Shown piece after piece: positions 4,201 through 37,891 of a DNA stretch of 64,000 bases. The notes beneath the pieces were generated by a model that saw nothing but the letters and a program-made list of their open reading frames with translations, was not told the origin of the DNA and did not search any database. The DNA lies in assembly GCA_008632985.1 (NCBI GenBank), contig QPGO01000232.1:1-64000 (forward strand), in the 5' to 3' direction. This DNA comes from Psammoneis japonica. Its lineage: Eukaryota. A program made the translations under genes and the position numbers. Each line of letters starts with the position of its first letter. The stretch's first letter is position 1.

Positions 4201-4822
4201 GACTGAGAGATGATGACAAAACAGCCCGTGATGCAAAAATGTGGAGTCAAGAGTCAATGAACGCAGCTTTTGGACTCTTTTGGGACTCCTGTAAGAATCA
4301 GGCGTGACTGAGAGATCACGAACGGGAACGCGACAAGTGTCATGCTTCATCGCGCGAGCCGTTGCTGCAATTCATCAACGCCGGCATTTCATGATGAGGG
4401 TTGACACGCCCCAAAACGATTTGTGGTGAAAGCTGCAAAACGGGGCTGTGCTGTTACTGCTCCTTCTCGTCGGTTGTTTTAGTCATGGTGCTGAATCGTG
4501 CTGATGAGTGTGTGTTGTGGAGGGAGTTTTCACGCATTTCGAAAATTCCGCCAAACGATCTTTACGCGCTTCGTGCGCGACAAAACTTCAACATCTGGCC
4601 GTCAGTCGTCTTCCCGCGCTTTTTTGTGTTGGATGGTTTCGCGCGGGCGGCGCGCGTCATCGCTCATCGCTCATCCATCTCACAAAACCAAAACATCATC
4701 ATCCATCAGCCATCATCACTTTGCGCTTCATTATACTCTGCTTGTTATACCCCTCCTTCTATTATCACACCACACTTATTGCAATCCTCATATAATACAA
4801 GGCCGTCTTTATTGCATGTCGA

Positions 4823-6654: not shown

Positions 6655-6789
6655 GACTACAGTGTGGAACAAAAGTACCTTATTCATTATTAAAAGGGAA
6701 TACCGCATTTTGAGGTGCCAATGTTATTCTGAGGAATGAGCTGCGTCTCTCTGCACGACGGTCTCGTATAGGCTAGCACATGATGTTTA

Positions 6790-6910
6790 CCATTTTCTGT
6801 GTCATCCCAATACGCTTCCACAGCAAGAATATCTCCGGCCTCCGATGGCGACATGGAAGAACCAAATCGATAACAAAACTCTCTCCAAAAATGTTGCTGC
6901 CGAGTTTGTT
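6790..6910 (-). pseudogene. Short FG-GAP paralog remnant, TA-retaining
   Basis: Translates YRFGSSMSPSEAGDILAVEAYWDDTENG, matching LFGSSVSLSDAGDILAVGAHWDNAENG of the neighbouring gene. Confidence 0.7.
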
Positions 6911-7173
6911 CCAACGATGCGAAGCAGGGAGCTGTATTTACAATCACTTTGTTCGTTATACCGGCATTTGGTTCGCCATACTGCCCACCTTTTAACGATA
7001 CAGCCCAACCAATTCGTGGACACTACGACTCCACGGTTGGTTAGCGGGATTGCATCGATAGTAACAATATAACATGGCCGATCGGATCAAAATCGTCCCT
7101 TGCTGCTATTTGCGATACAAAACTACATCTGCAGCATTATTGACACCAATGCATGAAATACAAAAATACAGTT

Positions 7174-9731
7174 CTAATTGTTGTTTACCGTAAATGCATA
7201 TGCGGATCCGGACTTGTCGCCATTGACGTCAGCATTCCGTGCACCAACTCCAACGAAGCTTCCGTCGGCCGACAAGGACACGGAATGTCCAACCAATCAC
7301 GTTCAGCCTCGCCATTTAAAGCATCTCCAACTTGCTTCCATTCGTCTGCATTGACGTCATACTGAAAGATTCGAACTTGACCCGCTCGATACATTCCATT
7401 GACGTCATGCAAACCACTTCCGACCGCCAAGACGTTTCCATTGCCACTCAATGACACTGAGTAACCAAACTCATCATCAGACTGTTGTGTCAAGAGAGTT
7501 TGGCCACGTGGATTCCATGTCAAAGTCGAGCGGTCGTACGAATGAACCAAAACCTTCTCGTCGTTGGTTCCAGGTGCATCCGCGGCCACGATCAAACCGC
7601 TGTCGTCAAGAGAAACAGAATATCCAAATTTACCATATTCGACTTGGCCATTGATTGGGTCACCCAACAGATCCCATCTTGACAAGGCAGAATTGTATTC
7701 GTACACTGACACTTGACCAGCATTGTTTCCACCCGAATCATTTCTATATGCTCCAACGCCAACAATGGTTCCCTGCGCATTCAACGAAACAGAAATACCA
7801 AAACGATCATCAGCGGCTTGGCCAATGAGGGTTTCTCCGAGTTGGTTCCAGGACGAAGAGCCGCGGTCGTATTGAAACAATTGCACCGATCCAGAATCAG
7901 AGCCATTTTCCGCGTTGTCCCAATGCGCTCCCACGGCAAGAATGTCTCCAGCGTCTGAGAGCGACACGGAAGAACCAAATAAATCACCAGCGTCTTGTCC
8001 AAGAATGTCGCTGCCGCGTTGGACCCAATGATCCGATGCCGAGTTGTATTCAAACACCCGAACGTGACCGGCATTCGATCCGCCACTGTCATTCCATGGA
8101 GCTCCAATGGCAAGAATCGTGCCATCGCCATTTAACGAAACAGACTCTGCATAATCGTCGCCGCCAGCTTGTCCAGTCAATTCTTGGCCAATTTGTATCC
8201 ATTGTTGGGTGCTTGGATTGTATCGATTGACCTCAACGTAGCCGGGATTGGAAGAAGATTGTTGTTGATCTGCTCCAATCGCCATAACACTTCCATCACG
8301 AGACAAGGAGACGGAATCGCCAAAATTGTCATCTCCCGCTTTGCCGTGCAAGATTTGACCGACGGGACTCCACGTCCCATTTAGCGGCAAACCACCACCA
8401 CTGGTAGAATTGGGTGTTGGAGCTTGAGTTGTGGGACGTGGAGTAGGATTGAGCGTTGGCGGAGGCGTTGGCGGAAAACTAGATGGAGTGGTGGGGGCTG
8501 TTGTGGAAGGTTGGGTAGGTCTTGAAGCGGTAGGAGCCACAGTAGGTGGAGGAGTCGGGTTGACCGTGGGAGATGGCGTTGGCTCTTTTGTGGAAGACGG
8601 AGTCGGCGTGGGTGTCGGAGCTAATGTCGATGGAGGCAACGTCGGATCTTGTGTCGGTGAGTCTGTCGGAGATGGAGAGGAAGGATTTGGTGTATTTGAT
8701 TCCATGCTAACGTCAGTCAAGTTGTCGAAAACGTCCTCGCCTTGAGCCATACCCGCGTCCTGTAGGCCGCCTGCATATGCCATTCTTCTGGCAGACGTTC
8801 TGAATGGTTCACTCACCATGTGATCAATAGAAACGTCCTTGTCTTCGAATGTATACGCGAATGATTGGGTGTACGTAACAAGTAAAGAGGGACGAGTGCC
8901 ATTGTTGCCACCTCTTACGACGTTTGTGTCGGTTACACCCAGTTCAGTTTTGACATTGTAGATGTTGGCGGTCGCTAAAGAGCGATGCAAGCGGCGTCGG
9001 CGACTGCTGTAAAAGTCCTCAACGTATTCCTTGGTCACGGCAGCCCATAAATCTGAGTCGTTCGCATCAAACACTGCGTCCAAACCAATCAAACTCATGA
9101 CCAATCCGGTAGCTTGTTTGATCGATTGCTCGCCGCTTGCTCCGCCATCGTCCCAGGGCTTCACTCCTACAATAACACCGACAATCGCAGCAATAACTAA
9201 AACAACAACTCCTCCTCCGATGATGTAACGTTGGCAACGTCTCTTCTTTTCCCCATCAATGGGATCGTCACCTTTCGTGTTGATCGACGCAGTTGGGTCG
9301 GGGCGGTGTTCGGCATCATCAGAAGCCATGAGGACAGGTTCCGCAACCTGGGCTTGAGCCAAAGGAACGGATCGGCGAAGAAGAATGTTTTCTTCTTGGA
9401 GTCGAGCCACTTCTTCATCCGTCACTTGAGCAAGCTGAGCTTGGGCAAGTAAATCGCTTGGATTGCGAGTGCTGGGCGCTGGAACAGAGGGATCAACACT
9501 CTCGGGCTCCGACATGAGTGTGACACTGTCAGGATTCCTTCCAGCTCTCGGTACCACGCCATCACGATTGACTGCATATGCTCCAGCTGCAGGAGCTTCT
9601 TCCGTGTCTTGATTTACCTCTTGATCTTCTTGAACCGTCTCTTGTTTCTCCTCCACCACACTTCTACTGTTCCCACGGCTTTCATAGGTGTCATCCCAAA
9701 TCGTGGTCGGCGGCTTGTTGGAACGGTCCAT
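7174..9731 (-). CDS. Type II membrane protein: acidic N-terminal region, TM helix, P/T-rich stalk, C-terminal FG-GAP beta-propeller
   Basis: 848-aa ORF; ~7 FGxSVSLSxxGxxLAVGA repeats; TM IIGGGVVVLVIAAIVGVIVGV; restoring one T near 7292 gives C-terminus ..GSAYAFTVNNN* (TAG 7174-7176). Confidence 0.85.
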
Positions 9732-12700
9732 GTTTGCTTTTAATTGGGAGGAGCGAGAACGAGAAATTATTGAGAGTCAAAGGAAAAGAATGTCGTCTGT
9801 GAACAAGTGTCGCGTTTTTCTCACATGAAACAAATGAGAACGCCTTTAGGCGCGGTCTTGACGTCAGCGGTGTCATGTAGGCTTCGCATCGCATCATCAC
9901 ACGCACATTATTGCAACTGCCGGTATTGCTCACGTCACATCAACCGCTATTATGGTATGAGCAGAGTATTACTCTGTAGTATGACTTTGACAAGTTCATT
10001 CTGCTTTGCCTCTATCTTGTAATTGCGGCAGTTACACCCTTTTGTGCCAAAATGCGCGAAAAGCCCAGACTCAACAACTGCGTAGGAGGACTTATAGATG
10101 CGTACGTAAAGGTAAAGGACTACAGACGGAAAGAATGATGTGTAGGTTAGGGCAGTGTGTGGTGACACCAAACAATTCCCCTTCAACCATTACTCACGTT
10201 GGAAAGAAGCTGCACGATACGGATCCAACATAATTACAACATGATGTAGACGACCGCAGCGCAATCGCGCATAGCCCAAGTAGCATTCCGGCCTGAGAGC
10301 AATTGTAAGAGGCTCCAAGATGACAACAAGTGAGATTCAAAATTTGTCTTACCACTCGTCTGATTCATAGAATATTAGACGGAAGAGAAAGCAAGCTTGT
10401 TGCCATGTATCTTTGCATCGTTGCGGAACGCCGGATTGTCCATAACAACGAGGATGATTATTGCCGAGTCGTTCTTGGTGCTTAACAACCATGGCACTCT
10501 TCACCCAAGAGAACTTATGAAACAAGGTGCGAAAGGCCAAGCTGGAAGCAACATATAATTTAGCACCGGAACGTCTTTGCAGGATATGCAATCAAGCTGC
10601 AACTAACCGGGCGGAGAAAGCATGGATCTTGTCAAATCCTTCTCGTTGGAGCTTAAACCCATCTTATTCTGCAACCTGCAACACCAGCACCTTCGCACCA
10701 TTCAATAATAGGAACGTATACAAGACACCATGATATTCCTGTATGGCGGTAAAGGATGAATGGGACACACAACATTCGTATAAGAGAATAAAGCGCGTCC
10801 GATCGCCAAATAGGTCTGAAAACATCAAACATTAGCTCTGCTTACTCTTGGTGCTTCAGTCGTCATATTTTTCCATACTGACGCCCATGCATCATTCAAT
10901 GCCAACGTATGAGACATGCCATGCCGTTCCTGTCTGGCGGTAACGCAGAAACAGGACACAAGAACGTGACAACAACCGCCATTTTTTCTCGTGCTTTTTC
11001 TGTACCGGTGTACGGTATGATGATGTTCGTGTTAAAAAGGAAGGGGTTCTGAGCCCAACACACATCATGTTCGCGAGCCCGCAACCATGATGATGCGTGA
11101 TGCGAATTGCGATCTTTATTTCCATCGCTCTTGCTCTGCTAGGTCCTAGAGCTGTGACGCCCAACCACGTGCTTCCACGTGTAATCAGACAACCCTTGGC
11201 TTTTTTCCAGAAGGCGTTTCCACCCGCGACACACACCATCACGAGGTTCCCGACAACTCCAGCAGCAAAATTCATCCCTCACACTTTCCCGTGTAAAAAA
11301 GGTGATGCTCCGTGAAAACCTGGCTCCATCATTTTCAAACACCTGGTGCCATCATGAACAACGCACGCCCCAGCCGCACATTCTCAACATGTTGGTGCTG
11401 GCGGGGGCCAAAGTCTGGCCAATCATTCCAAAAATTTTGAGTCGAGTCGGTCGTGTGTGGGATTCAAGACCCACATGACACTGGGGGGTGCAATGAAGGA
11501 AAATTGTTTCTCTTTCTCAATGCCAGTGCAGCCTGCAACATCAGCGTGAAACACCCAGCTTGTGATTCTGCAACAAATCGAGAGATTTTGCAAGCAATGA
11601 AGAGTTTCTGTTTGCTGAAATTTTTTTCTTCTGCAAGACAGCATCATCAATGTGTGCAATTTTGTCAGTGTTGTTTTCAACTGCTTGTTTTTTTAACATC
11701 GCGCCAGCTTCGTTCTTTTTTTTTTCACTCCAAAATTTGCCCCACACCCCACCCTCATCAAAATCTTGAAAAACGTTCATCATGTCAGTGGCACTGCTCA
11801 AACAGGTTTGACAAAATGATGATGACATTGCATTTGTCAATGTGCTTGCATGCAACAACTGACTGTGTGAGCTGGCTGTGACAGCGTTGCAGCAGCTGAG
11901 TGAGACAACAAGGGGCGAGACTTTGAAACATTGACAGCACCATTTTGATCACCCACTTGCTTGCCTTTTTACAAACACCAGCTTTGGCTCAGCAGGTGCC
12001 AAAAATCCAATGTGTGGATGGTGGGTGCAGAGCTGTCATGTGACATGTTGCCACAAATGACTGGGTCAGCACTTTTCAAACAATCTCAACAGAAAGCCAG
12101 TCTCTGGTTGGAAAATTGCATGTGTGCATTGACGGGCATCTGGCGGAGCTGCGCCCTTGCATTGGTCCAAGAAATGACAAATGTTCAGATGCTTTGTCTG
12201 CTGCATCAGTGTCATCATTGACTCTGGTGGGTTTTTGTCAATTTTCCCATGTTTCCACTGCAGCGATGGTCTGTGTTCTTGTTTGGAGTTGTTTGAGACC
12301 TGGGTCTCACAACTGTGAGCAGAAAGAAAATGTGCTGGCGGGAAGCAGGGTTCTCATTGCAAGAAAGACTTGCATTTTTCCCATGACAGTGTGCAGTCTC
12401 TTGCCCGTGAGGTCACTCCATCACATGCTGCACTGGCAGATCCACACAGACGCTGGCACCTTTCTTTTTGTGTGCGCTGTGAAGAGGTGCTGTGTGACAC
12501 AAGAACAGCTGATGAGAGAAAGGTGCCAACACAGGCGCGAGGGTTCAGAAAGCTTCCTGCAGCTCAAAATCATTGCAGTGTCAAGCAGCAATGAGGTGGG
12601 GAGTCCATTGCTCTGTCTCGTGGGGGTTGCATTCTTGCTGTGGCTTGAGCATTGTCATGACCACGGAGGCTTTGATGTGCCATGCCGGTGCCTGTCTGTC

Positions 12701-13316
12701 ATTCAAAAACATCAAGATGGAATGAATGAATCATCTGAATGTCAAAGGTGACATCATTCACATGTGCAGTGAGCTTTCACTTGACTTCATGGTCGTCCAC
12801 CAAAGTCAATGGAAAAATTTTAGACCTTTTCTGTCTTCAACTCTAGAGAGATTTGACACTCCAAAAAGATTTGCCACCGCCGCACCGTCAAAATGTTAAA
12901 ATCACACTGTGCTGCCGGCACACAGGTTTTGTTCTGCACTGTTCAAGCAGGTTTTAGATGACAAAAGCAGTGTGTCATTTGCACCAGGATTGCACTCCTG
13001 CAGTCATTTGGGGCTCCTGACCTGCGTGCCCTGAAACAGAGAGGGGCTGCACAAGCACAAGAGGTCGAAGCTTTGCAACAGGACACATGCAACCGCTGTG
13101 TCATCATGAGATTCCTTCCTCCTGCTCTTGTTGCATTGGTGCCACTGGCTGAGGTGGATCCCCTTGAGGCCATGAAGTGCACAAGTCTGTGGAAAGGCCC
13201 AGAAGCAGTGCAAGAGCTGACAGAGGAGAGTGCCACTGCAAAAGACCACAAGGGCAGCAAAAGCAGCAAACATGGCAAGAGCACAAAAAGCCATTCTTGT
13301 GGCAGCAAAAGTTGTT

Positions 13317-13319
<3 letters not shown>

Positions 13320-13363
<44 letters not shown>
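13320..13363. repeat. (AGC)n microsatellite
   Basis: ~14-15 pure AGC units; the intact paralog has only AGCAGCAGCAGTAGT. Confidence 0.9.
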
Positions 13364-13366
<3 letters not shown>

Positions 13367-13740
13367 GAATGCAGCAAGCCCTTTTTGGAGCCACCCAAGG
13401 ATGTTTGCATTGCTCCCAAAGAGCCGGCAGCACCCACCATTGTTTCATGTGGAGGTGAAATTGTTGGCCAAGTGGTGACCCTCAAGTCAGGGTTGGCATG
13501 TCCAACTCCCAATGCATGCCAACGAGGCTGCAATCACAGTGAACGGCCCACGAGCTGTCTTGCATTGTGCAGGAGACAGATGACCCAATCATCAACCGAC
13601 CTTTGTTTTGGCAACATTTTGGAATCCGGGTCCATTGGTGTTTTGTTGTTGAACGGAGCCACCATGAAGAATTGTTTTGTCCAAGGATTCAGCACTGGTG
13701 TTGTCACGAGAGGTGATGGAAACAACAAAATTGTTGGCTC

Positions 13741-14140
13741 GACGGGTTCCAGTCCTGGCAGGTGGGACTCCGTTTGACATTGGGCCCGCAGAATTCTGCG
13801 TGCAAGCTCCGTAGTGACTTTGTGCTGCAATGAAAATGTGCATGATCGCCAACAGAAAAAGAGGCAATTTTACGAACGCATCTCCTCCTTCACACTTGGA
13901 GCACATCATTGACAGTTTGCCCGGGTGTGTTCTTCAGACATTAAAGAACACACCCAGTGCATTTTCATTCTCACAAATGTTGAAAATGGAAAGCCTTTGG
14001 CTTCGCAAAACAGGGAGTGTAAAACAATTTCGTAGAATGTCACATGTAGAAATGTGCGTGCGCGACATGCGACGTGATCCAAAAAACCATTGATGTCACA
14101 GTTCAGCAGTGCGAGGTCCCACCTAGAGCTGGAACGCGTC
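13741..14140. mobile_element. Family A MITE
   Basis: TIRs as at 343-732; TSD GCTC; the empty site is visible in the paralog (GTTGGATCAACCATC at ~32561). Confidence 0.92.
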
Positions 14141-15200
14141 GCTCAACCATCTTCAACAACCAAGTTGGTGTCATGACGGACATGGCTGGAGCCGGCCAAA
14201 GCAGCGACCGCATTTGCTCAGTCAAGCGCAGCATGACAACGAGCCCATCTGGCTTGGACACAGTCAGAGTTTTGGCACAGCATGGCGGTGCCATGATCAC
14301 AAGCAATGCTGACATTTTGGGTGTGCAATCTGCAGCGGGAGTTCATTTGCATCCATTCAGTGACAACGCACCATCTGCGAACATGGAGGGTGTCAATGTT
14401 TTTTGTAGAGAGCAGGGCATTGTTGTTGGTGATGATTTGACCAACTGTGGGAAGGTTGTGCCAGAGACCTCTTTGGTTGCAACAAGTTCATTGGCAACCA
14501 AGGCAAAAGCATTTTGGCAAAGAAAAACACCAATGAAGGTGGCAGCATCACGGCCTTTGGAGACCCAACAGCAGAATGCAAGGGCATGGATGCAGCTGAG
14601 GTGATGGACGCTGATGCTGCATTTGTTTTGAAAAATGAATCTTGTTCCGACATTGTCAACACAGCAAGAACAAACACAGATGCTGCCCAGGCTTGCAGAG
14701 GTGTCAACATTCCACAGAGCAGTTCCCTTGCAAACTCCATTTTGAAATGGCCCATCAAAGAGCACTGGAGTGAGCCAATCCTGATTGGCTTTTGGATCTT
14801 TTTTCACACATTTCTCACTCTGTTGAAGAGCGGATGTTCACGCATGCTCATTCTTGCACTCTCCAAGACTCAATGCCTTCTGCCAGAAGTTTGGTGTTGT
14901 TCTTGAAAGTCATTCCCACAGTTGTTCCCGCATTCCCAGGCTTGCACAAAGCAGGTTTCAGCACCATCCTGTGGGGCTGTTGACAGTCTGAAATGTTCAT
15001 GCCAAGACGTTTGCCGAATCCATGCCTTCGACCAGGAGACAAACCATGGTGCATGGCATGACTTCCGTTTCACATTCATTCATCTCCCACATCATTGTCT
15101 GATTTGCATGGGATTCAATGGCAAAAGTCATGCAACATGAAGCCATGCAGCAGGCCACAATGTGGTTGGGGTCATGCAACTTTCTCTTGCAGAGGAATTT

Positions 15201-16240
15201 TCACAGGGCATCAAACTCTTCACTCAGTGGCAGCATGTTTCTTCCAGCTTTTTGACCCATCTCTTGGGCACACCAAAGTTCAGCTTGGAAACAAGTGCAC
15301 CCACTTGAGATCTTCAAATCCATCAACACCAAAGGGATCCGAGAGCAATTTCAAAAGCACCAGCAATCTGTGGAAAAAGAATGTCATGAGTCTGGCAAGC
15401 AGTGCCAACAGGCTGGCCAAACATCTGAGCAGAGTGCGAAGGGCGCCACCCACACAAGAGAATCAATCAAGACTTTTGAGCAAGTTGGGCACAGGCAAGT
15501 GGCTTGAGCCTGGCTTGTCAATCATCAGCGTCAAACATGCAGGCACACAAATGTGTCAATTGATCTAACACATTGGCTTCAAACTCTGAGCCACCACAGA
15601 GGGTTCCTTGTTGAAAGCCCTCTGTCATGTGCATGCCCGCCCATGTGAGGAGGGCATGTGCACATTGTGACGGTGGCAACCAGGGCTCCATCAAGGTGGG
15701 TGCTTCCTTTTTTGAAGCTGTCCTGACCCCACCAAGGATTGCAAGCCAAACAGGCTGAGCAACAAGGCTCCAATGTGTTGTTTGTCCAACAGAAGAGGAC
15801 AACTTTCTGCGTCCTTCATGAATTTTTTGCTGTCAGTCAATTGGCAAGGAGAGATGCATTTTCAATGACAAAAAAGATGAAAACCATCCCCGCCATTGGC
15901 TTGTCCAACCAAATCTTAGCCGGCGTGACACCATGGTCAGACAGCGGGGCTGCATCAATTGGCAACATGACATGGCCTGCTGGAAAAAATTTTTCCCTTT
16001 TTGTTGCTGCTGCAGCAACACTGTTTGTGATGTGATGAAGAATGAAGCTGCAAACACAGTGTGAATCATGCAAAAGCCTGAAATGCAAAACTGCAGCTCC
16101 AGCTGTTGTTTGCCACAAATGCACACACGGATCCAGAAGACTCTCCATTGACATCAGTCAAAGAAGTGCCAACTCCAATGACTGTCCCATCTGCCAACAC
16201 AGACACTCCAAATCAATCATTTTTGACCCCCAAAACAGCC
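15201..16240 (-). pseudogene. Hypermutated, 5'-truncated duplicate of the bestrophin gene at 33551-34915
   Basis: LPPSQCAHALLTWAGMHMTEGFQQGTLCGGSEFEANVLDQLTHLCACMFDADD vs LPPSQYAYILLTWVGMHVTEGIQQGTLRGGSGFETNVLDQLTRLRASMFDIDD; same order and orientation relative to the beta-helix gene. Confidence 0.9.
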
Positions 16241-16289
16241 AAGCATTTGTGATTTCGATGCTGACAATGACTCTTGTTGCCCCTCTCTT

Positions 16290-16307
16290 CATTGTTGTGC
16301 TGTTGTT

Positions 16308-16338
<31 letters not shown>

Positions 16339-16352
16339 TTGTTGTTGTTGTT
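16290..16352. repeat. (TGT)n microsatellite
   Basis: Long GTT/GCT run. Confidence 0.85.
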
Positions 16353-16996
16353 CTTGTCCACAGTCATTTCCTCATTGCCCACAGACTCTGTGCTCTGCTC
16401 TTCCTCATTGGAAGCCACTGAAACAACCTGAGCAACCTCTGCTTGTCGTGTGGTGGGAACCAATTGTTGAATGCACACTGTTTGTTGCTGCAAGACTTCT
16501 TGCCGGCGCACCATTCCTTGCTTCATTTGAGCCATTTGCACCTGCAAGCCCTCCACATCTTTGCTCGGTTCAGCCAAATGCACTTCAGCAAGCCCAGGAG
16601 GCTCATCAGCATTGGCAGGCTGCAGTGGTTGAGGTGTCAGGTGTCAGCGATGCCATTTTGGGTGAAGTCATGAGGAGGCAATGTCATCAGCATCCCTTCC
16701 TCATTGAACTTCCTGCCCTCCTTTGCTGGCGGCAAAAGCTCCAGCGATTGCATCAGCTCTTGGAGCCATTTCCAGTGCTTGTTCTCATTGTTGCTGTTGA
16801 TGGCAATGGCCAACATGGTGGGGAGCCACACTCATTTCTGTGCTGTGCGTGGCTTCCTTGTTGTCACGACAAGCAAATTCATGAAATTGCTCAATCTTGC
16901 ATTTTGTTTCTTCATCTTGATCATCCTTCAAGTTGCTGCAACTGGCACTGCTGCATCTTTCCCACATCATCTTTTGCACATGTTGCCGTTGTCATT

Positions 16997-17396
16997 GATG
17001 GGTTCCAGCCCCAGGTGGGGCTCCGCGTGACATTGGGCCCACAGAATTCTGCGTGCAAGCTCTGCAGCAAATTTGTCAAGCAACCAAAACACAAATGATT
17101 GCCAACAGAAAAAGAGGCAATTTTGCAAATGCATCTCCTCCTTCACACTTGCAGTGCATGATTGACAGTTTGCCCGGGCATGTTCTCTGCAGACATTGAA
17201 GAATGAACCCAGAGCATTTTCATTCTCACAAATGTTGAAAATGCGGAAAGCCTTTGGCCTTGCAAAATGGGGAGCATGAAACAATTTAACATGACATCAC
17301 AAGCAGAAATCTGCATGCACGACATGCGATGTGATCCAAAATCTCTTGATGTCACAGTGCAGCAGTGCAAGGTCTCACCTGGAGCTGGAGTGCGTC
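16997..17396. mobile_element. Family A MITE
   Basis: TIRs; TSD CATT on both sides; 400 bp. Confidence 0.9.
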
Positions 17397-17505
17397 CATT
17401 GCTGAGCTTGTGGGGAGTTGCTTTCTTGTTCACAACGTCAATGAATGTTGTTGTTGTTGTTCTGGCAAAGAAGCAAAAAATTGTGCGAAGGAGATGAAAA
17501 GTGGA

Positions 17506-17902
17506 GACGGGTTCCAGCCCCAGGTGGGGCTCCATGTGACATTGGGCCCACAGAATTCTGCGTGCAAGCTCCGCAGCAAGTTCACCAAGCAATGAAAACA
17601 CAAATGATCGCCAACAGAAAAAGAGGCAATTTTGTGAATGCATCTCCTCCTGCACACTTGTGGCACATCATCAACAGCTTGCCCGGGTGCATTCTGCAGA
17701 CATTGAAGAATGCAACCAGAGCATTTTCATTCTCACAAATGTTGAAAATGGAAAGCCTTTGGCTTCACAAAATGGGGAGCATGAAACAATTTTGTAGAAT
17801 GTCGTGCGCAGAAATCTGCGTGCGCGACATGCCACGTGATCCAAAAAACTCTTGATGTCACAATGCAGCAGCACGAGGTCCCACCCAGAGCTGAAATGCA
17901 TC
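17506..17902. mobile_element. Family A MITE
   Basis: TIRs; TSD TGGA on both sides; 397 bp. Confidence 0.9.
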
Positions 17903-19167
17903 TGGACTGAGTTGTTTTTGCGATGCTCAGTCATGCCATGTTGACACCTTGTGGAACATTTGTGACAGCTCCTGTGCAAAAAAAAGATGGGAAGTGGGGT
18001 TCTCACAGCCTGAGTGACACCTCTGTTGTGTTTCTCTTCTTGCATGGAGAAAAAAGCTTGAGTGAGTGATGAGAATGGCTCTGACACTGTTGGCGTCAGC
18101 GCCAACATGAGAATTTGGGTGACCATCTGCCTGTCACTCAAAAATTTGTGACAAAATTTTGCGACCCAGATGCGGGCCGCAAAATCACACGTTAAGCATC
18201 TGATGCGATTGGCGCTAAAATCCTTCAAGACTTGACAACTTTTTATTTTAAGGTGTGCGCACAATGAGCGCACAGCAGCGCAATGTCAGCCAGACGACTG
18301 TCGTGCATTTTTTGTGATTTGCGCAACAAATTGCCGTCAACGCCGACGATGACGATGACAATTTTCAGACGCTGACAGAGGATGACTTTGCAACAGGCAC
18401 TTAACACATCAATCAATTGCACTGCACAGAACACACATGTGCAAAGAAAGTCCCCCGGATGAACTCCCAATCGTTCGACAATCGAATGCATTGAAACGAT
18501 GGTCAAAAAACAGAGCTCCTCATTGGCGCGACGTTTTGCTTTTGAACAGAGGTTGCTCACGGGGACTTCCATGACTGAATGCGTTTGTAAACTCAACAAA
18601 CTGAATGTCTGCAATGACAAAAGACTCTGGGACATGTCGCTGTCATCGCTGTCATTGCGACAATGCACCACCGTCACGTCGCGCTGACCCCCGGCTGACC
18701 CGGGGCTGACACCGCGTGCAATCCCACGGCGCACGGTGCCACACATCAGCAGTGTGGAAAAAACGACCGTGCACTCCACGCGGACCGCGAGCTCCGGCGC
18801 GCGTGACGTCGCCCGAGCGCATCACTCAAATTCTGACGTCCGCGAACACCGGAGCGAACCCCAAAGTTCCGACCGTTCGCTTGCTTCTCCTCCTCCTCCT
18901 CCTCCTCCACACACACACACACAAAGACGCAACCAACCAAATGCAAACACCACATCGCATCGCATCCGGACGGCCTGCAACGACTGCCGTCAACATGCCC
19001 CACCCAACTCAATGAGCAAATCTCAAAGATGGTGGAGGTGAGTTGTTGCCATGAACCGTGGCTTCCTTCCTCTTTGGAAACAGGAGGTTTGTTGTTTTGT
19101 CTTTGCTTCTCAGCTGTGCTGCTGCACGTGCGCGACACACTGCTGGTGGTTTTTGGGGTTGGTTTCC

Positions 19168-19290
19168 ACTCAGCTGAGCCCCATTCTCCAGCTCAGCCCA
19201 CCCACTCAGCTGAGCGCAATGATCCCTCATCGGCTCAGCTGAGCCTTTTGTTGAATTTTTTCTCAGCTGAGGGATTTCACTCACCTGAGA
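19168..19290. repeat. Cluster of CTCAGCTGAG palindromes
   Basis: 4 perfect copies plus variants; similar clusters at 20212-20318, 27507-27549 and 28533-28678. Confidence 0.8.
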
Positions 19291-20511
19291 TTCTTTCTTC
19301 CTTTGATTGCAGACCCATCTCCGCCCTCACCAGGCTGCTGCTTTGGTGTCTCAGCAGAGGACTGCTGAGATTGCCAGTGCTGGGAGACGTGTTGCCAGAG
19401 CTCCTCCTCCTGGTGGTGCCTCCACAGCTGCAGCTGTTGGCGGCGGTGGTGCTGGTGCCAGCGCCACTGGATCCCATGGCAAGGGCAAGCACAAGGGTGC
19501 CAAGGGCCAGAGCCAGTCCAAGAGGCGCAAGGGTGTACACCAGGCAGCATCTGCTCGTGCTTCTTCTGTAGAACCTGGCATCATTCCCTTGCCTCAGGGC
19601 GAAAAGCAGCTGTTGCAGCACCTCATTGCTTGCCACAAGGAAATTATGGGTCTGAAGGTTCCGCCCACTGTTGGGGAAGGCATGACGCGCGGCAACCCCA
19701 AGGCTGCTCACAAAAGTTTTGCTGAAAATTTGGCTGCTGTTTTTGCCTTCAAGGCAGTGTTTGGATCTGGCCAGAAGGTCCCTGGCAAGGTTTTTGCCAA
19801 CATGCATGGAACAAACTGTCTGCCTGACCATGTCAACAGGATTCATTCTGAGGACACTGAGGCCAATCGCAAACATCTCTGTGCCAAGCATTTCAATGTT
19901 TTAGACAAGCACTTTCCCTGGGAAACACCACGGGTTTTGGGGCATGGTGGGGGCGACTTCAAACCACAATCAAGGAGGACAAATTTTGGGCCCCCGGTGT
20001 TCATGGCTGCAATGCACCTGGAAAGGGTTTGCTGTGTCGCAGATTCCTCGTCATTCTTCTCAAGCACCAAGTGGTGAAGGACTGTCAGCGCTGGTTGGAG
20101 CTGGCTGCAAAACTCCAGGTTGCAGGCTGCAAAATTGGTTCATGAAAAACCGTCGTGTTAATGCACTGAAATTAGATCTGCACAAGACTCCACAGCGCTG
20201 CATTTTCGTTGCTCAGCTGAGAAAATGCCACTCAACCGAGCGGCTCAGCTGAGAAAATGCTGCTCAACCGAGTGGCTCAGCTGAGAAAACACTGCTCAAC
20301 TGAGCGGCTCAGCTGAGACACTGGCACTCTGCCAAGGCACCACATCAAGTCCTGCGCCTCTTGCTGCCACTTTGATTCTGCACATCCTGCATGTCAAATG
20401 GCTGGTTCTCAGGAATTGGAGCTGGAAGATCAAAGCGGAAACGAAAAAATCCAAATGGCGTTGGAAACGAAAAAATCCAAATGGCGTGAATCCATCATGT
20501 TGTTTGATTGA

Positions 20512-23500
20512 TTGTTTGTGCTCCTCTTCTTGTCTCTAATTCTTCTGTTCTTCTTGCCACCTCTTTGGCCGCCTCCCTTTTGCTCCTCAAGCCCCAGTGT
20601 CAAAAACCCAAAAGATGGTGAACCTTCTGATGTTTCTCAGAACGAATTGCTGATTCTCCAAGATGTGCCGACTCTCAAGGAACAATTTGAATGTTCCCGA
20701 ACAAAGTGGCCGACCCTCGGTGCAACTCATCAGTCGCCTCCTCCTCCGCCAGACAATTTCACAAAAGAAGAGCTTGCGAAAGTGTTTCCTGAACCATCTC
20801 CGTTTGCGATTCCGGGTGAGGTGAAGTCACAACATTCTCACCTTGTCGTCTTTGAGGAAACCCCCATTTCCGGTTCCTTTGGGGGGAACTGTGTCAAGCA
20901 CCAGTTGTTCCACAGCATCTCCGATTTCTACTTGGTGAATCACCTCCGCAAGTTCATGCATGGATTTGAAAACGGCACAGCTCCCAATGATCTGACGCAA
21001 GAATCGATGGTTGCGATTGCTTGCCCGACCCAGTCAACCTCTCATTTTTCCAACGTGGTCACTCATTTGTGACACACTGACAAGATGCATCAGAGGTGCT
21101 TTTTTGGTTGCGATTCAGTGTGTCGTTGACACTCCGTGCAGTGTTGGAACATGGCAAGCCAAACGAAAAAAGGGATGGACCAGAATGCAAGTTGCGCTGT
21201 CGGATCTGTTTTGGTTGTTGTGGCCAGAATTACGAAGTCGCGGATGGTGAGTTAGCTGAAGTGGGACCTGCTCACAAGCCTGGTGCTGTTTTTGGCAGGG
21301 ATGAGTGGGAGAAGCTTCCAAAGGATGTGCAGGCAATGATGGCCTCAATCTTGGACGCCGCGCAACTCTGCGAGGACGAAATTAATCTTGTTGCTTTGAA
21401 AGAAATGCATTCCTTCCATGACCCACACCGTGACAGTCTTTTCGCGGCTGAGCTCCGCAAGATGGTTGGAGCCAAGCACATCAGAAGGGAAGGCGTGGAA
21501 ATTCAAGTTAAGTGCATCTCGTCATCCGGCAAAAAATCCGTTAATTCGAAAACCGAGCCACACATTGACAAAGAGGATTGTGACATGGATGGGTGCACCA
21601 AGACTGGTGCTCTTTGCTCGTCACTGCGAGACGCTGTTGGTCGCTCTTGGTCATTGAAGGTTGTCACTGCATCCAAAGGCAATGCTGGAAACCACGTCAG
21701 TTCGGCACATGGGTGTGCCGAGTTCCGATCGCGTGTGCATGGTCATTTCGCAAAACTTGATCTGTCGTGTGCTGCAGAAATGATGAGATGCCGTGGCCCT
21801 TGTCGTCCTCCGTCGGGCAAGCCAACCCACAGAAACATCAAAGATTTTTTCCTTGACCCTCACTCTGTGTGGGTGGAAGAGGAAATTGGCAAGCCAAATC
21901 TTCTGTCCGACACAGTCAAGTGTCCCGTTGTTGTCATGCCAAGGAAACGTCTTCTGTTTGCCATCGTGAAGGACTTTAATTTCTCGTGCAGTTGTTCGGC
22001 AATCATCGACAACCTTGATGAGGTTGGTGCATGCGATTGCTTTTGTTGCACCATTGTGGCTGGGCATCAAACCGGATTTCCCGTTTTTGCTGCTTGTTGT
22101 GCAACACAGATGCTGTGAAGCATCCTTTCGTGTCTGGCGATTGTGTCCTTCATTGCTTCAGAGAAGCTGCAAGGCCACTCGGCAGCATTGCGGGGGATCG
22201 CAACAACCAACGCATGCAGAGCCCGGGACTTGATTTTGAGGAGGTTCATGTGGCAGAGTGCGGGACAAAACTCAACGGTTTGATGGACTTGCTTGTTGGT
22301 GGACTGGTTGTTGTCATCGACTGGATCAATGACAATGTTGGCAAGCCAACGTTCAACCACAAGGCGATCGAGGGTGTGTTTAAAACCGTGGTCCAAACAT
22401 GGGATCATGCAGGTGCTGATTGTGGAGAGTTCAGATGCATGAACTCTGTGCAGATGTTGATGCTGTGTGGCATGGGGATCCATCCTCACCCTGACCTTCG
22501 TAATCTTGTCCATCCGGTGGCCAAGTTGGGAGCAGCAAAGCAAATGGAGGAAATGAAGGTCCTGGTGGAGGAGCGCAATTTACTCTTGGAACGGACAGAG
22601 GGTGATTTTGATTTGGAAGACTGTGGAAAGAATGGCCCAGAGTCTTTGCCATGTGACCTGAGTGCAGCTCATGAAAAGATGGGAATCTGCGATGTCTTTT
22701 GTTGCGGACAGCATCTGTTGCTCTTGTTCTCTGATGGGCAATCAATGATCAAGTGGTTTGGAAGGCATGAATGGGAGCCAGTCCCATTCATGTCGATTGA
22801 TGAAGTTTGAGCCAAACTGGAACGGCAAAGAGAGGTTGCTTTTTCATGGCAATCACATTTGTTTTTTGTCTGATTGTGCTGACATTGTCACATTGAATTC
22901 TCATTCTAACAGGAAGAAGGCCGCCGGTGATTTGTTGTCATTCGCAATGAACAAAAGTGACGATTGTGAGGAGGAGTCAATTGACGAGAAAACAAGCGAA
23001 CTTCCAACTGCTTGCATGGGTGAAGAGGACAAAAGCAAAGAGCCCATTGACGATGAGCACAACCAAGTTGCACATTGCTCTGAGGGTGAAGAGGACCACA
23101 GCGACCCAGGAGATTGTTTTGCAAGTGACGAAACCAACGGGGAAACACACAATGTGCTGTGGTTGGGGATGACCCGTCCGCTCAATGCAAGGCATCTATC
23201 TTCTCAAGAATTGTGCTCTGAGAAGGGGGTGGCCTCAGTGTCGTCCGACCAACACAGGCGAGACGAGGCCCGCGCAATGGCACTTGAGGAAACTGACAAA
23301 ACAGTCACAAACGTCGTTCCAACAGTTTCTCTCCAAGACTGCCATCCTGATCTGCACTTAAATTGCAATGTGAAAGCAAGAGATTTCGTCAAGAGAGTCA
23401 AGCAGCAGTTTCAGAAACTTGTTGATTTCGAAAATCATGGGTTCGACCAAATCATGTTGGACTGCTGCTGGATGCCAGATGGAGAGTGGTGCGATGGTTG

Positions 23501-23906
23501 TTTTGGGATGACTCAATTTTTCCAGAATCTAATTGATCTTCGGGCCTTGCTCTCCAAAAACGAAGAAGGGGGGGACACAGTGATTCCCTTTGCTCTTGCA
23601 ACCTTCTTCCAGGTTGTCAAACAATGGAAGAAATTGTCAGCTGTGTTCGACATGTGCACAATGGACAATGATGCTGCAAAGAGCCGTGCGAGCACATTCT
23701 TTGCAAGCAACCTTGTGACCCAAGAACAACGAGAATGGTGGTTGGGAAAGCCTTCCGATCAGGAAGAAGCTTGTCTTGGAGTTTCCAAAGAAGACATCAG
23801 AACAAAAGCAATGGAAGGTGCTTGCACCGCACTGCTTCACGTGTGCCACAATGACTTCACCAATTCTGAAAGGATCAAATTCATCATGTTTGCAAGAAAG
23901 AGTTAG
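20512..23906 (+). pseudogene. Decayed large multidomain ORF (transposon cargo); possible HxD dioxygenase-like and methyltransferase-like domains
   Basis: Chain of four long + strand ORFs almost devoid of Tyr; EPHIDKED motif; C-terminal NVLWLGM...FDQIMLD(CC=YY)WMP...FF.NL..L..LL...G...IPF pattern. Confidence 0.4.
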
Positions 23907-23944
23907 GAAATCACTGTGAGTGAATGACAGATTGATGCGCACAC

Positions 23945-24250
23945 CCTGTTTTAGAAACAAATCTGACCAACACTTCCTTCTGTCCTGTGCAGCCCAAACA
24001 AATGGGGCCTTTTCTTGTGCTTCTGCTGCTCCTGGACATTCTTCATAAACCAAAACATTGTCCCCAATTGCTTTGACAGGGACAACCCGCAACTCAGGTG
24101 AGCACTGAGTCTTCTCAGGCATTGAAAGCCAGTTGTTTCGTTTGTGATCAAGTTGCCAGCGACTGACCAAGTCTGCATGCTGATGCCATTGCCTCATGGT
24201 TCTCTGGTCAATGTTGACAGGGCCTTCATCTAGACTCACACTCGTTGTCC
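23945..24250 (-). mobile_element. Possible C-terminal fragment of a Plavaka-like DNA transposase
   Basis: RWQLD..PELRVVPVKAIGDNVLVYEECPG..VWAAQDRRKCWSDLF resembles, from memory, the C-terminus of algal Plavaka-like transposases; unverified. Confidence 0.3.
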
Positions 24251-24650
24251 TTGTCTTGTGGATGAGAAGGGAAAAGAAGAACAACACACAAAAAATGGCG
24301 GGAAAATGGCAAACATCACATCATCTTCCAGATTTGGATGATTCTTGCAGGCATGATGTGTCTGCATTTTGATTTTTCATCTGGCATTTGCAGTGAACAT
24401 TGTTCTTTTTTATTTGCTGTCAAAATGCAGGATGTTGTCCCCATTGAAACGCAATGACAGCCATGTCAAAAAGCAAGTTGGACTGTTCATTGTCACACAC
24501 AAACACATTTTCAAATTTCAATGTCGCTGACAACAATTTGTGCAATGTCACAGAGAAAAACAGAGTGGCTGGCTGTCTCAACATGACCCAGACAACGGTT
24601 GCACTGTTGAACAGTGACGCTCCTCTCATTGTTGCCGTGCAAAGATCAAG

Positions 24651-25972
24651 ATGTCGTCTGCAGCACCACCGGCAAAGAAGAGAAAGAAAAATGAGACTGT
24701 CAAGCCAATGAGCCCGAGACTTCAGGCAGTGTTGAAGAGAACAGGTGTGCAGGCAGCGCATGGTGCATTGAAATCAGAAGTGGAGAAGGTGGCTGGAAAT
24801 GATCTCTTTCCACAGGTGAAGTTTCTCAATCCGTCAGAATTGGCAAGCAATGGGAGCGTCTCAATGTTTGTGAAGAAAGAGATTGCTGGGGGCAACATGG
24901 ACACTTCAAATTGGTCAGGAACTTGGGAGGAATGGGCAAAAAAGGCGGCAAAAAGGCAAGTTGACAATCGCAGAAAAACACTGTGTGTTCGGCTGTTGGG
25001 GCGGAGGCAATGGCCCGTAAGTCAAATGACCAATGTGTGTGATTCGAGAGTTGCGCGCATCTCACAAGAAGATGACGGTGATGCTTTGTCTGTGTGGGTG
25101 TTGTCACTGAGAAAGAGGGAAAGGAAAAAGAAAAGAAACTCAAGGCGGCAGTCAGGAGGAAAAAGCAAAGCAGGAAAAAGTCAAGCCGTGACAAGAATGA
25201 AGAGAATGATGTCCCGTTTGTGCCGACATGGGATCCGTTCAGCCTGGACACTGTCACCGGCGGCAAACGAAGGAACAAGCAGGCATGCAAGTGGTTCTGT
25301 GATCACATCCTACCTCAAACCAAGCAAAAGCAGGCATGGAGTGGCGCCATCAAAACTGGGAACGCACAGGTCTTACAGTTGTTTATGGTGGGTGACGAAG
25401 CTTTGGCGCTGTCAGCTGTGGAGAATTGTTGGGAGGTGTGGGCATGCAGGAACAAGGAGGAGGTGGTGGAAGAATTGGGTGAGGAAATGGAGCCCGAAGA
25501 AACAAGGCCTGCCCCTCAGCACACAAAGCCAAAGAAACAACGAGTGTCTTGGGGAGATGATGGAATCATTCGGTTCAACGATTTGCACAAAGAGGTGACG
25601 AAAGACAGAGACTCCAAGGAGGGCAAGGAGTTTGAAAAGTGGTGTGCGGAGATCAAGAAAAGTGAGCACGAGAAGTCCGGAGAAGCAAAAAAGAAGAAGA
25701 AGACAGCACCGACCGGTGATGCGGAGAAGGTGAAGGCAATGAACAGCCCAATGGTGGAGAGCAGCAGGGATGACAATGGTGATGACGATGAGCAGGAGGA
25801 AGGTGCAAAAGGCAAAACGAACGACGGAGGAGACGAGTCCGATGGAGACGAGTCCGATGGAGACAAGTCTGATGATGATTGTCAGCTTAGTTTGAGAGAG
25901 TTGCAGCAGGAAAATGTGTGCACAGTCAACACAGCACTCGGTCATTGCACTGCAGATGTGACAAGGGATTGA
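24651..25972 (+). pseudogene. Decayed transposon-associated accessory ORF
   Basis: LFPQVKFL; KWFCDHILP; DEALAL..ENCWEVW; WGDDGIIRFNDL..EV..DR pattern recalled from diatom DNA-transposon accessory proteins; no Tyr. Confidence 0.45.
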
Positions 25973-26002
25973 CTCAGCCGATGAAATGCTTTTCTTGTTC
26001 AA

Positions 26003-26526
26003 CACCGGATCCATGGGTGCACCCGGGAATTGCGGGATGAAAGGGGGAAGGGGCAAATGGGAATGGTGGGAAAGTGAGGGGCCATCATTGTGCCTTGAGG
26101 GTCCCTTTAGTGAGCCGAACACGCACATTTCTCATCTGACCATCACAGGCCCGTCTTGTGGGGGGTGTCAAAATGTTGTGACGGGACGCTTCTTGAGGAT
26201 TGATCGCCACACAATGTGTGTGGCTATGAAGGTTATATAAAGTTGAAAATTCACTTTTTTATGTGTGTCGTTTTCAGATTTATGTGACATTGATGGTCCA
26301 ACAAAATGCACAAAATCATTTCTAGAGACCGCGTCTGCTCTCACAATTTGACGACCCTCGAAAGGACGGACCCACAAGGGTCAAATCGGCAACAAGCGTG
26401 TTTGGCTGACTAAAGGGTCCCTCTGGGTAAAATGACAGCATGTCACTTTTCCACCATTCACATTTGCCCCTTTCCCCTTTCATCCCGCATTTCGCAGATT
26501 CCCCTGGTGCATCCGCGGATCCTGTG
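26003..26526. mobile_element. TTAA-targeting (piggyBac-like) MITE with ~190-bp imperfect inverted arms
   Basis: 26003-26190 is an inverted match to 26330-26526; termini CAC..GTG; flanks TCAA (mutated TTAA) and TTAA; a related partial copy starts ~28973 after TTGA. Confidence 0.8.
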
Positions 26527-27149
26527 TTAAAATGATGTTTGCGAAAATTAACAAACCAAGGTTTGTGTGGCAATGCAATCACGCATTGGCATGTGGCAAC
26601 AAGGTGGAGGCAGAAATGGTGATGTGGACACAGTGAAAACAGCACACATGATTCTCAACAAGTTGTTGCAACATTGGCGCACCAAACTTGCAACCAGAGG
26701 TTGGCCTGTCACCATGTGACAGTGATGTGTTCCAACATTTTAATGAATTGTCATCATGTGGATCTACACATTTTTAACATTTCGTGCACTCTGATGTTTG
26801 CATTGATGAACAAGAAAAAAGAATGCTCTCAACCTTCTCTGACTCTGTCACAATGTCGCTCATCAAGGGAGGGAAGCCACCAAATGTTTTTCCATCATGG
26901 ATGGTGACCGTCCAGCCAGCCAGTGCCTTGCCACACTCCCTGTCCATCCTCTCTGTTCCCTGCACATGATCAAACAAGCTGTGCAAATTTCTCAAGTCCC
27001 AACCTGATCGAAAGATCTGTGGCATTCCAGCAGCAGATGGCAAGTGGGCCATTGCCTCCTCAGAGTCCTTCTTCCTGCAATGAGAATGAAGCCAGGCATT
27101 GAGCGTGCCAAGAATGGAGTGTGTGGCAGGGCCAGGTCTGTGCAGCCCC

Positions 27150-28431
27150 TCCTCCTGTCCACCATCTTCATCATCCTCATCTTCTTCCTCGTCTCCATCA
27201 TCATCGTCAAGGGTTGCAAGTTCAGTGCACTCCTCGTGGAGCTGGGCCAACTTGGAGCAGGATGCTGACCACAGCTGTGACACCTTGCTGGACTCTTCTT
27301 CTTTGTCATCAGCACAGGGAGTCTTGGCCGCCTCTCCAAACCTGGGAAACAACAAGTCAGAGTTGCTGCGCTCAGCTGGAATTGTCACAAGAAACATGGC
27401 AAGGGCAACGCAGCAGTCAAGCTTCCAGTTGTCCTGGCATCATGGGAGAGGGAGGGGAATGCATGGGTCAGAGGTGGCAGCATTTGGGGTTGAGTCAGTC
27501 AAAATGCTCAGCTGAACAAATCGGCTCATCCACAGAAACTCAGCTGAGATCCGTCACTCACCCGGTGAGGGTGCATTTTCAAATTCTGGTGCTTGTCGGT
27601 CTTGTGCCTCATGAGGCTGTGGACAATGACTGGGCAATCCATCGTTTCTTCATGCTGCATCACAACAGAAATTTTCTGCTTGCCTCCAATGGCCACTTCA
27701 GTTCCTCTGCCAGAAGCCTGGAACAAGCAAACATCCAAGAAGTGAAACTCAAATGACTCAGAGTCACCCACCCAAATGACAATGAATGCCGCAGCCTCCC
27801 TGTCTTGTTGTGTTGATGCCTCCCAAGGGTTCACCACTGCCATCCCTTCTTTTCTGTGCCTGTCAACAATGGTTGTTTTCATGTCTGACAGCAGCTTGGA
27901 CCACCTTTCAGCAGCAAGCACTGCAGGACTTTGCTTGTCGGGGTGCCTCCGGATCAGGCAAACTTTTGTTGCACTGGTGCACCCAGTTGCAGACCCAAGC
28001 AACAGGCTCTGTGCATTGGGCGCCTTGCTGCAACGGCACTTTGCATCATTGGCCAGATGGACCAGAAACCCCTCCATCAGGTTGGTGTTGATGTCTTGGT
28101 GCCTGAGATCTTCAACACGAACGTTGGAGTGCCTGCAGTGCTTGAGGTGGTGACAGAAGTGTTTGAGAGCCTTCTTCTGCTTTTTCTCTCTCTCTCTTTG
28201 CTTCTTTCTGTTTTCACGACAAGGAGCAAGGACCAAGCTGGAGGTGGAGGAGTTGGCAGGGACTGAAGCTGCTGCATCAGGTGGGTTGGCTGCTGCTGGG
28301 TGTGGGGCTTGGCCAGCCAAAGTGGGGCGCACTGGCGTCTCATCCAAACGGAGGGTGAGACCTTGGTCATTCCATCTGGCGGCATCTTCCAAGCCTTCTC
28401 TCAACTGCTGTTTCCTCCACCTCCTCTTCAA
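27150..28431 (-). mobile_element. Decayed tyrosine-recombinase (Crypton-like) ORF
   Basis: Helical N-terminal region followed by SGRGTEV (R-x-x-E box I) and RHKT (catalytic Lys-like); continues as LLFPRF..SKVSQLW; no HxxR or Tyr box visible. Confidence 0.45.
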
Positions 28432-37858: not shown

Positions 37859-37891
37859 AAGTACACTCTCTAACGAGTGTGTGGATTGACG

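Follow-up and report, generated by a model that had tools for sequence, protein, structure and literature searches.

Regional hypermutation that removes the dinucleotide TpA has one relevant precedent in the literature that we searched, a preprint on the chlorarachniophyte Bigelowiella natans, and the search returned no report of this signature from a diatom. According to the main text of that preprint, 230 of 231 mutations in mutation-accumulation lines were A->G or T->C changes, all at TpA and in two integrated viral regions, where mutation runs about 1000-fold faster than elsewhere in the genome, in some lines only (bioRxiv 10.64898/2026.01.13.699255). The same text describes clusters of TpA-poor, CpA- and TpG-rich windows in the genome and an enrichment of reverse transcriptase and DDE domains among TpA-poor coding sequences, and an ADAT2-like adenine deaminase is proposed there, without proof (Mettrop et al., bioRxiv 10.64898/2026.01.13.699255); the words trinucleotide, flanking, context, CpG and diatom do not occur in that main text. 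As to adenine deaminases, the parts of the literature consulted give the preference of TadA as U33-A34-C35-G36, i.e. U(-1)A(0)C(+1)G(+2) (PMC10586758, PMC10027721), and that of fungal ADAT-dependent mRNA editing as A or G at +1 (PMC10027721). In this study, we describe a 64,000-nt stretch of DNA from the diatom Psammoneis japonica (GenBank assembly GCA_008632985.1, contig QPGO01000232.1, positions 1 to 64,000; hereafter the window), most of which has lost nearly all of its TpA. We consider it very probable that a real, domain-limited TpA->TpG/CpA hypermutation process has acted there.

The window is diatom nuclear DNA in which gene islands of ordinary composition lie within domains of several kb, made up of repeats, remnants of transposons and duplicated fragments of genes. 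TA density is bimodal along it, and a two-state segmentation of TA density over all 64,000 nt gave sharp borders between depleted and normal DNA (Table 1). Six depleted segments add up to 44,810 nt (about 70% of the window), with observed/expected (o/e) ratios of 0.04-0.14 for TA and 0.46-0.74 for CG. The five normal segments total 19,190 nt and display ratios of 0.57-0.59 and 0.95-1.07, the small normal island at 388-772 (385 nt) reaching 0.79 and 1.64. CA and TG are in excess in depleted DNA (o/e 1.66-1.68, against 1.21 in normal DNA), where AA stands at 1.29. The normal islands consist of intact-looking genes with a flank of a few hundred to 1500 bases, and these flanks are rich in TA, e.g. 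25-28 TA per 500 bases at 10001-11000, which argues for regional protection or regional targeting and not for codon selection. Selection against TA was likewise rejected as a cause, since the depletion is carried by pseudogenes and transposon remnants and not by expressed-looking genes or their flanks. The largest depleted domain contains duplicated host gene fragments, copies resembling miniature inverted-repeat transposable elements (MITE-like copies), a high-copy repeat and tandem repeats. With TAA and TAG excluded and TGA left as the sole stop, depleted DNA contains many long open reading frames (ORFs), in every frame.

The direction of change was read from pairs of paralogues found by self-comparison of the window, with the normal copy taken as a proxy for the ancestor. 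In seven alignments of a normal with a depleted copy, some of which share one normal reference, the TA kept were 0/73, 0/22, 6/25, 5/25, 1/24, 0/24 and 0/23. The best pair, 13099-15841 against 31954-34193, is 79% identical over 2207 aligned bases and has kept none of 73 TA and 15 of 115 CG; among its 71 scored TA sites, 35 now read CA, 21 TG and 4 CG. A depleted FG-GAP paralogue (58458-59517, compared with 7312-8372; 80% identity over 1057 aligned bases, protein 70% identical) has kept none of 22, and the MITE-like copies at 13741-14140, 16997-17396, 17506-17902 and 53108-53496 have kept 5/25, 1/24, 0/24 and 6/25, respectively. In three pairs, TA is kept at a fraction of 0.05 of 120 sites, with T->C at 0.41 and A->G at 0.32, and CG at 0.31 of 213 sites. 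Other changes are far less frequent in these pairs: AA->AG amounts to 0.076, no higher than the reverse change, CA->TA to 0.003 and TG->TA to 0.008, and transitions at the other non-CpG dinucleotides do not exceed 0.20, the highest of them (AC, AT, GT) overlapping TA sites. At the protein level, the depleted FG-GAP copies (437 and 285 aa) contain no Tyr, compared with 23 in the normal gene of 863 aa, and the aligned Tyr positions read Cys or His. The paralogue fates and the replacement of Tyr by Cys or His indicate that the depleted state is derived, via TpA->TpG/CpA and CpG->TpG/CpA. Biased gene conversion was rejected as a cause, because it would lift G+C at every A:T site and not at TpA alone.

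Which of the two adenines of a TA site is changed depends on its flanks. Ancestral YTAY sites (Y, pyrimidine; R, purine) became TG in 22 cases and CA in 9, and RTAR sites TG in 6 and CA in 26 (Fisher p=4e-5), so that a pyrimidine stands directly 3' to the A that is changed. When each converted TA site is regarded as a contest between its two adenines, an A with C at +1 comes out ahead in 60 of 77 (p=9e-7); restricting the count to the three pairs with distinct references leaves 40 of 53 (p=3e-4), and the best pair by itself gives 26 of 33. An A followed by T wins 28 of 66, which is no polarity, and those followed by A or G win 15 of 40 and 13 of 49. The polarity is set by C at +1, and an A:T pair beside the TA (ATA/TAT) speeds the loss without clear polarity. 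A preliminary description of this stretch had proposed 5'-TAY as the target and noted that TAC is hit; the 3' pyrimidine and the C are upheld by these counts, and T at +1 as a polar signal is not.

The TA that survive bear the same mark. The interval 11400-24420 holds exactly 50 TA (o/e 0.06), divided into 30 YTAR, 19 with TAY on one strand (mixed) and 1 RTAY, in agreement with a by-eye tally in the preliminary description of about 50, split into about 30, about 19 and 1. The tetramers are TTAA (14), TTAG (8), GTAG (6), CTAA (5), TTAC (4), CTAG, GTAA and TTAT (3 each), and GTAC, CTAC, CTAT and ATAA (1 each). The region's own NT and AN dinucleotides predict 15.7/24.6/9.7 (chi-square p=1.5e-5), and the survival gradient YTAR > mixed > RTAY that had been suggested from the tally thus persists once base composition is accounted for. 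It extends to all depleted segments, where 241 TA fall 109/115/17 with 73.0/119.3/48.7 expected (p=4.5e-9), and to the depleted DNA outside 11400-24420 considered alone (190 TA, 79/95/16; p=1.5e-5). The 44 isolated survivors, with no other TA within 150 bp, are split 25/18/1. Counting NTAN tetramers in depleted and normal domains, a check that the preliminary description had put forward, gave the same answer within the window: the gradient is reversed among the 793 TA of normal segments (121/416/256; depleted vs normal p=8.8e-27). We also tried the idea that the survivors are fresh TA arisen from CA or TG, and rejected it, as the contexts of these would predict 23/53/24% (p=1.7e-18). Per base, the density in depleted relative to normal DNA is 0.455 for CTAA/TTAG, 0.36 for TTAA and 0.31 for CTAG, ratios of the YTAR class that are inflated since the normal reference is mostly coding and avoids in-frame TAA and TAG; the composition-based tests are independent of that reference. 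For the TAC/GTA sites it is 0.18 (CTAC/GTAG), 0.15 (GTAA/TTAC) and 0.107 (GTAC), and the most thoroughly erased are the ATA/TAT sites, with 0.076 for ATAA/TTAT, 0.045 for ATAG/CTAT, 0.007 for ATAT and 0.006 for ATAC/GTAT. Survivors are also enriched for A at +2 and T at -3 (0.50 vs 0.28).

The arrangement of the outcomes bears on the mode of conversion. Along the alignments tested, CA and TG outcomes alternate without the excess of runs that processive single-strand action would leave (P for as few runs or fewer 0.24-0.88; in the best pair, 30 runs among 57 events, P=0.79), which indicates that both strands were hit site by site and not in one single-strand sweep. The depleted member of the best pair, 13099-15841, spans two oppositely oriented genes plus their spacer; since these were copied together, the duplication occurred at the level of DNA and not through a retrocopy. 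Among young depleted duplicates, adjacent double differences are CA<->TG in 16 of 20, 7 of 9 and 7 of 8 cases, and 62 of 75, 34 of 48 and 24 of 25 mismatched bases (71-96%) lie within the set CA, TG, TA and CG, with the other mismatches confined to 13 of 1225, 14 of 657 and 1 of 276 bases (0.4-2.1%). In the tandem repeat at 29638-31580, too, most differences between the copies set CA against TG, or CG against CA/TG. Because the differences sit at former target sites, the copies were converted independently, after duplication, in place and far faster than ordinary divergence proceeds. For CpG decay, the nature of the 5' neighbour makes no difference (A 53/96, C 26/64, G 28/61, T 48/89), as spontaneous deamination of methylated cytosine would give. 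On the best reading of these sequences, the CpG loss would be a second, ordinary process that marks the domains as methylated and silent.

At a probability that we put at roughly 0.7, the best explanation overall is a hypermutation process of this kind driven by an adenine deaminase of the TadA/ADAT2 type and directed to silent or repeated chromatin. A local, site-specific activity has turned almost every TpA into TpG or CpA by A:T to G:C transitions on either strand, converting site by site, in chromosomal place, after duplication and far above background mutation. It prefers an A followed by C, erases most completely the sites flanked by a 5' A or a 3' T, and acts slowest on YTAR, so that YTAR dominates among the survivors. 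Adenine would most likely be the base that is chemically altered, through deamination in DNA to hypoxanthine within 5'-T-A-(C>T>R), and an A->I change is read as G. Given that the hypermutation is real, adenine deamination as such has, judging from the sequence, a somewhat better than even chance. The targeting signal would lie in the silent or repeated state of the chromatin, and the outcome would resemble the inactivation by fungal repeat-induced point mutation (RIP), with Tyr codons lost and TAA and TAG made impossible. A wider proposal, which we offer tentatively and hold to be rather doubtful, is a RIP-like defence of diatoms with reverse chemistry. A nuclear DNA adenine deaminase of TadA/ADAT ancestry would act on silenced, repeated or hemizygous DNA, would be shared with chlorarachniophytes, and would be old and widespread in the stramenopile-alveolate-rhizarian (SAR) group, with the flank rule (T-A-C preferred, YTAR spared) as its enzymatic fingerprint.

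Several observations weigh against this explanation. The likeness to TadA suggested in the preliminary description agrees with the order T(-1)A(0)C(+1), as far as the TadA preference is set out in the sources cited above, and stops short of G at +2, which has no significant extra effect: TACG wins 31 of 37 contests and the other TACN 25 of 37 (p=0.17). Nor does TACG survive any worse than TACC or TACT (0.14, compared with 0.04-0.17 for the other TACN), and the most depleted sites of all, TAT/ATA, are not a TadA motif. Some of the alignments reuse one normal reference, so that their counts are not fully independent. The loss of TA is uncoupled from that of CpG in a CpG-rich patch at 18501-19000, which has 48 CG in 500 bases yet a single TA. 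One copy of a duplicate has stayed normal while the other was stripped of its TA, and a MITE-like copy without mutations lies within depleted DNA, from which it follows that homology alone is no trigger; the process may be episodic, or extinct and no longer running at that place. No TA-poor 1-kb window was found in 277 kb of 53 diatom-like metagenome contigs around TLC transporter genes, which are short and gene-rich and therefore say little about such domains in other diatoms (minimum o/e 0.25). Finally, T-A-Y on one strand is R-T-A on the other, and the sequence fits the chemistry of adenine as well as that of thymine.

The thymine could indeed be the altered base, if an oxygenase of the TET/JBP kind, or another modification, acted at R-T-A to give a 5-formyluracil-like base and T->C changes. 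All the sequence evidence fits this too; 5-formyluracil mispairs with G, and in dinoflagellates 5-hydroxymethyluracil is enriched at TpA and TpC. We nevertheless regard thymine chemistry as unlikely, as the T-A-C order resembles the adenine deaminase preference known from the sources cited above, and the sole study of this signature proposes in its main text adenine deamination, also without proof. An error-prone repair pathway or polymerase at silent chromatin, misincorporating opposite T at TpA with a narrower relative of the WA signature of DNA polymerase eta (Pol eta), would produce A:T to G:C transitions of just this kind, at an A that follows T, and the preliminary description had named such a pathway as its own alternative. 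It appears improbable, because AA is unaffected (AA->AG 0.076 per base, against 0.32-0.41 at TA; o/e 1.29), as the preliminary description had judged in calling the pattern narrower than that of Pol eta, and because TA is nearly erased in young duplicates that have diverged by about 1% elsewhere, which would need patch synthesis erring solely at TA.

Modified bases that make base calling or polishing read TA and CG as TG or CA have also to be weighed, since some long-read chemistries are known to miscall modified motifs systematically. Reassembly of the reads of a public run (X1) gave contigs that match depleted DNA with 0 differences over 10931-13309 (2379 bases), 14115-16285 (2171) and 16364-17050 (687), at a word depth of 30-34. 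This exact agreement, over as much as 2.2-2.4 kb in one piece, rules out an artefact of assembly or polishing and covers base-calling artefacts in part, the platform of run X1 being not on record and the run perhaps coming from the same sample as the window. The divergence from paralogues by transversions and indels, together with the dependence of the CA-or-TG choice on flanks, weighs strongly against an artefact, and near-complete miscalling of TA on both strands is no known error mode; we therefore hold an artefact to be very improbable. Among the rows listed, most of the read variants in depleted DNA trace to related copies that differ in CG versus CA/TG, and they add little. Word depth in run X1 is 30-37 over depleted 10931-18285 and 50-67 over the normal DNA at 4000-8761; perhaps only one haplotype carries the depleted block, or its alleles have diverged too far to have 31-letter words in common. 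ADAR-type A-to-I editing of RNA with subsequent reverse transcription and integration, or the import of foreign or viral DNA that was TA-poor from the outset, might be invoked on account of the retrotransposon remnant in one depleted domain and of the B. natans precedent, which, in the preprint's main text, concerns integrated viral DNA. This is the least probable account and is already largely refuted: 13099-15841 is a DNA-level duplicate of two opposite genes with their spacer, A->G and T->C changes alternate along a single strand, tandem copies diverged as CA versus TG after duplication, and no viral hallmark family was found among the 125 depleted-DNA ORFs scanned. Moreover, ADAR favours G at +1, which is disfavoured here (13/49). 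A deaminase acting on chromosomal DNA remains our preferred reading.

The features of the window are listed in Table 1. The fragment of the TLC ATP/ADP transporter is 59-76% identical to its 55 best-scoring matches, some of which are named diatoms of the genera Ditylum, Attheya, Nitzschia, Mayamaea, Thalassiosira and Discostella. The MITE-like element is very abundant in the genome, as its summed word depth over two copies is about 35,000-40,000 in run X1, and the unmutated copy at 344-732 is probably a young insertion amid depleted DNA. A repeat at about 20-24 kb (20008-23999) also occurs in high copy, with a summed word depth of about 2,000-5,500 in the same run; its ORFs at 21081-22115, 22022-22807 and 22749-23903 matched no Pfam family and only one unnamed homologue, at 54% identity, and an Atlas search of this repeat gave scores of only 0.84, under the accepted level. 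Alongside the Gypsy remnant, the MITE-like copies and the duplicated host genes, family scans and a homologue search recognized no origin for most of the depleted DNA. No deaminase ORF of the cytidine deaminase (CDA) fold (HxE, PCxxC) was found among the window ORFs, and tRNA and Rfam scans of the window gave no matches.

The tandem repeat at 60440-61354 matches itself at offsets that are multiples of 42 bases (126, 168, 252, 294, 378, 420) and lies inside long ORFs on both strands, e.g. 59863-62271 (-), of 803 aa. A (TTG)n microsatellite is found at 16290-16350, within depleted DNA. The kilobase 25001-26000 is strongly purine-skewed, with a GC skew of 0.29 and an AT skew of 0.30, and the stretch after it, 25998-26531, matches its own reverse complement at 68% identity. 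An FG-GAP-like paralogue at 47241-48030 seems to straddle the border near 47455, where about 200 bases on one side hold 9 TA and about 800 on the other hold 2, though this is only a hint, as the alignment has about 60% identity and the gene is internally repetitive.

Table 1. Segments, genes and repeats of the 64,000-nt window (o/e, observed/expected).
Feature	Position	Strand	Basis	Remarks
Depleted stretch, short	1..387		segmentation	at window edge; 1 TA
Depleted domain	773..4731		segmentation	TA o/e 0.11, CG 0.74
Depleted domain, largest	11183..31696			20.5 kb; TA o/e 0.07, CG 0.50; includes 11400-24420
Depleted domain	39119..45471			TA o/e 0.11, CG 0.65; ORFs without Pfam match
Depleted domain	47455..55143		segmentation	TA o/e 0.06, CG 0.46
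Depleted domain	58093..64000		segmentation	TA o/e 0.14, CG 0.67
Normal island	4732..11182			TA o/e 0.59, CG 1.01
Normal island	31697..39118		segmentation	
Normal island	45472..47454			one ORF at 45734-46945 (+)
Normal island	55144..58092			one ORF at 56890-57693 (-)
TLC ATP/ADP transporter ORF	5358-6350	+	Pfam match	normal island 4732..11182
FG-GAP gene	7188-9776	-		normal; 863 aa; ancestral-like reference
ORF	31916-33133	+		normal island 31697..39118
Bestrophin-like ORF	33554-34984	-		normal island
FG-GAP paralogue	1832-3142	-		depleted, Tyr-free; aligned stretch 1847-3000
FG-GAP paralogue	58458-59527	-		depleted, Tyr-free; aligned stretch 58458-59517 vs normal 7312-8372
FG-GAP fragment	47515-48030	-		in depleted domain 47455..55143
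DNA-level duplicate	13099..15841	+	self-comparison of window	depleted duplicate of normal 31954-34193
Ty3/Gypsy-type remnant	52574-53137	+		RT_RNaseH, 74.5 bits
Ty3/Gypsy-type remnant	53613-54359	+		Integrase_H2C2, 46.7 bits
MITE-like element	344..732	+		unmutated copy, 26 TA/385 nt; about 400 bp, long inverted ends, variable middle
MITE-like copy	13741..14140	+		depleted
MITE-like copy	16997-17396			depleted
MITE-like copy	17506-17902			depleted
MITE-like copy	53108-53496			depleted
Tandem repeat	29638..31580	+		in depleted DNA; 93-94% identity
Tandem repeats	60440-61354			in depleted domain 58093..64000

What is new here, set beside the main text of the one 2026 preprint on a rhizarian alga from which it was known before, is the occurrence of a TpA-erasing hypermutation signature in a diatom. 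That the same signature is near saturation in a lineage both distant and ecologically dominant, where it falls on remnants of transposons and on duplicates of host genes, argues for a general repeat-inactivation mechanism in this part of the eukaryotic tree; if this is true, a counterpart of fungal RIP with opposite chemistry would exist, and a natural chromatin-acting adenine-to-guanine editor of DNA would be of interest to the base-editing field. The flank rule and the conversion of both strands in place narrow the search for the enzyme and give a direct read-out for an assay. For annotation the depleted domains are a hazard, as they yield long spurious ORFs with TGA as the only stop and pseudo-proteins free of Tyr.

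Compared with B. natans, as described in the main text of the preprint, the window displays the same TpA-only A->G and T->C transitions giving TpG and CpA and the same regional confinement, with the rest normal. The host, however, is a stramenopile and not a chlorarachniophyte rhizarian, and the depletion is near-saturated, at an o/e of 0.04-0.14 over 70% of the window against 0.45 in the B. natans viral region. The targets seen also differ, being transposon remnants, MITE-like copies and duplicated host genes here, with no viral hallmark found, and CpG decay and a measurable flank rule accompany the loss of TpA, which that main text does not describe. Clusters of transitions in selfish elements are shared with ADAR hyperediting and with APOBEC, where they are driven by deaminases, but those enzymes attack a single strand, be it RNA or single-stranded DNA, and so leave strand-uniform clusters, whereas here the outcomes alternate, the hits extend to DNA-level duplicates and an A followed by G is disfavoured. 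Under the Pol eta WA signature AA is hit too, unlike in the window (AA->AG 0.076, AA o/e 1.29). The decay of methylated CpG in many eukaryotes resembles the change of CG to TG/CA without flank polarity in the same domains; it explains the CpG part only and cannot remove TpA. With TadA and ADAT, the process shares the requirement for T (U) at -1 and the preference for C at +1 of the changed A, as far as the sources cited above describe it. The T-A-C polarity of the window is closer to the TadA type than to fungal ADAT editing, though incompletely so. The natural substrates of TadA and ADAT2-ADAT3 are RNA loops, whereas chromosomal DNA is changed here, on both strands. Like fungal RIP, which occurs in silenced, cytosine-methylated DNA, this is a regional, transition-only hypermutation that ruins repeats and leaves a dinucleotide footprint. 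In contrast to RIP, which turns CpA into TpA, raises TpA and mutates both copies of a duplicate, TpA is removed from the P. japonica domains while CpA and TpG rise (CA->TA 0.003), and one copy of a duplicate stays normal.

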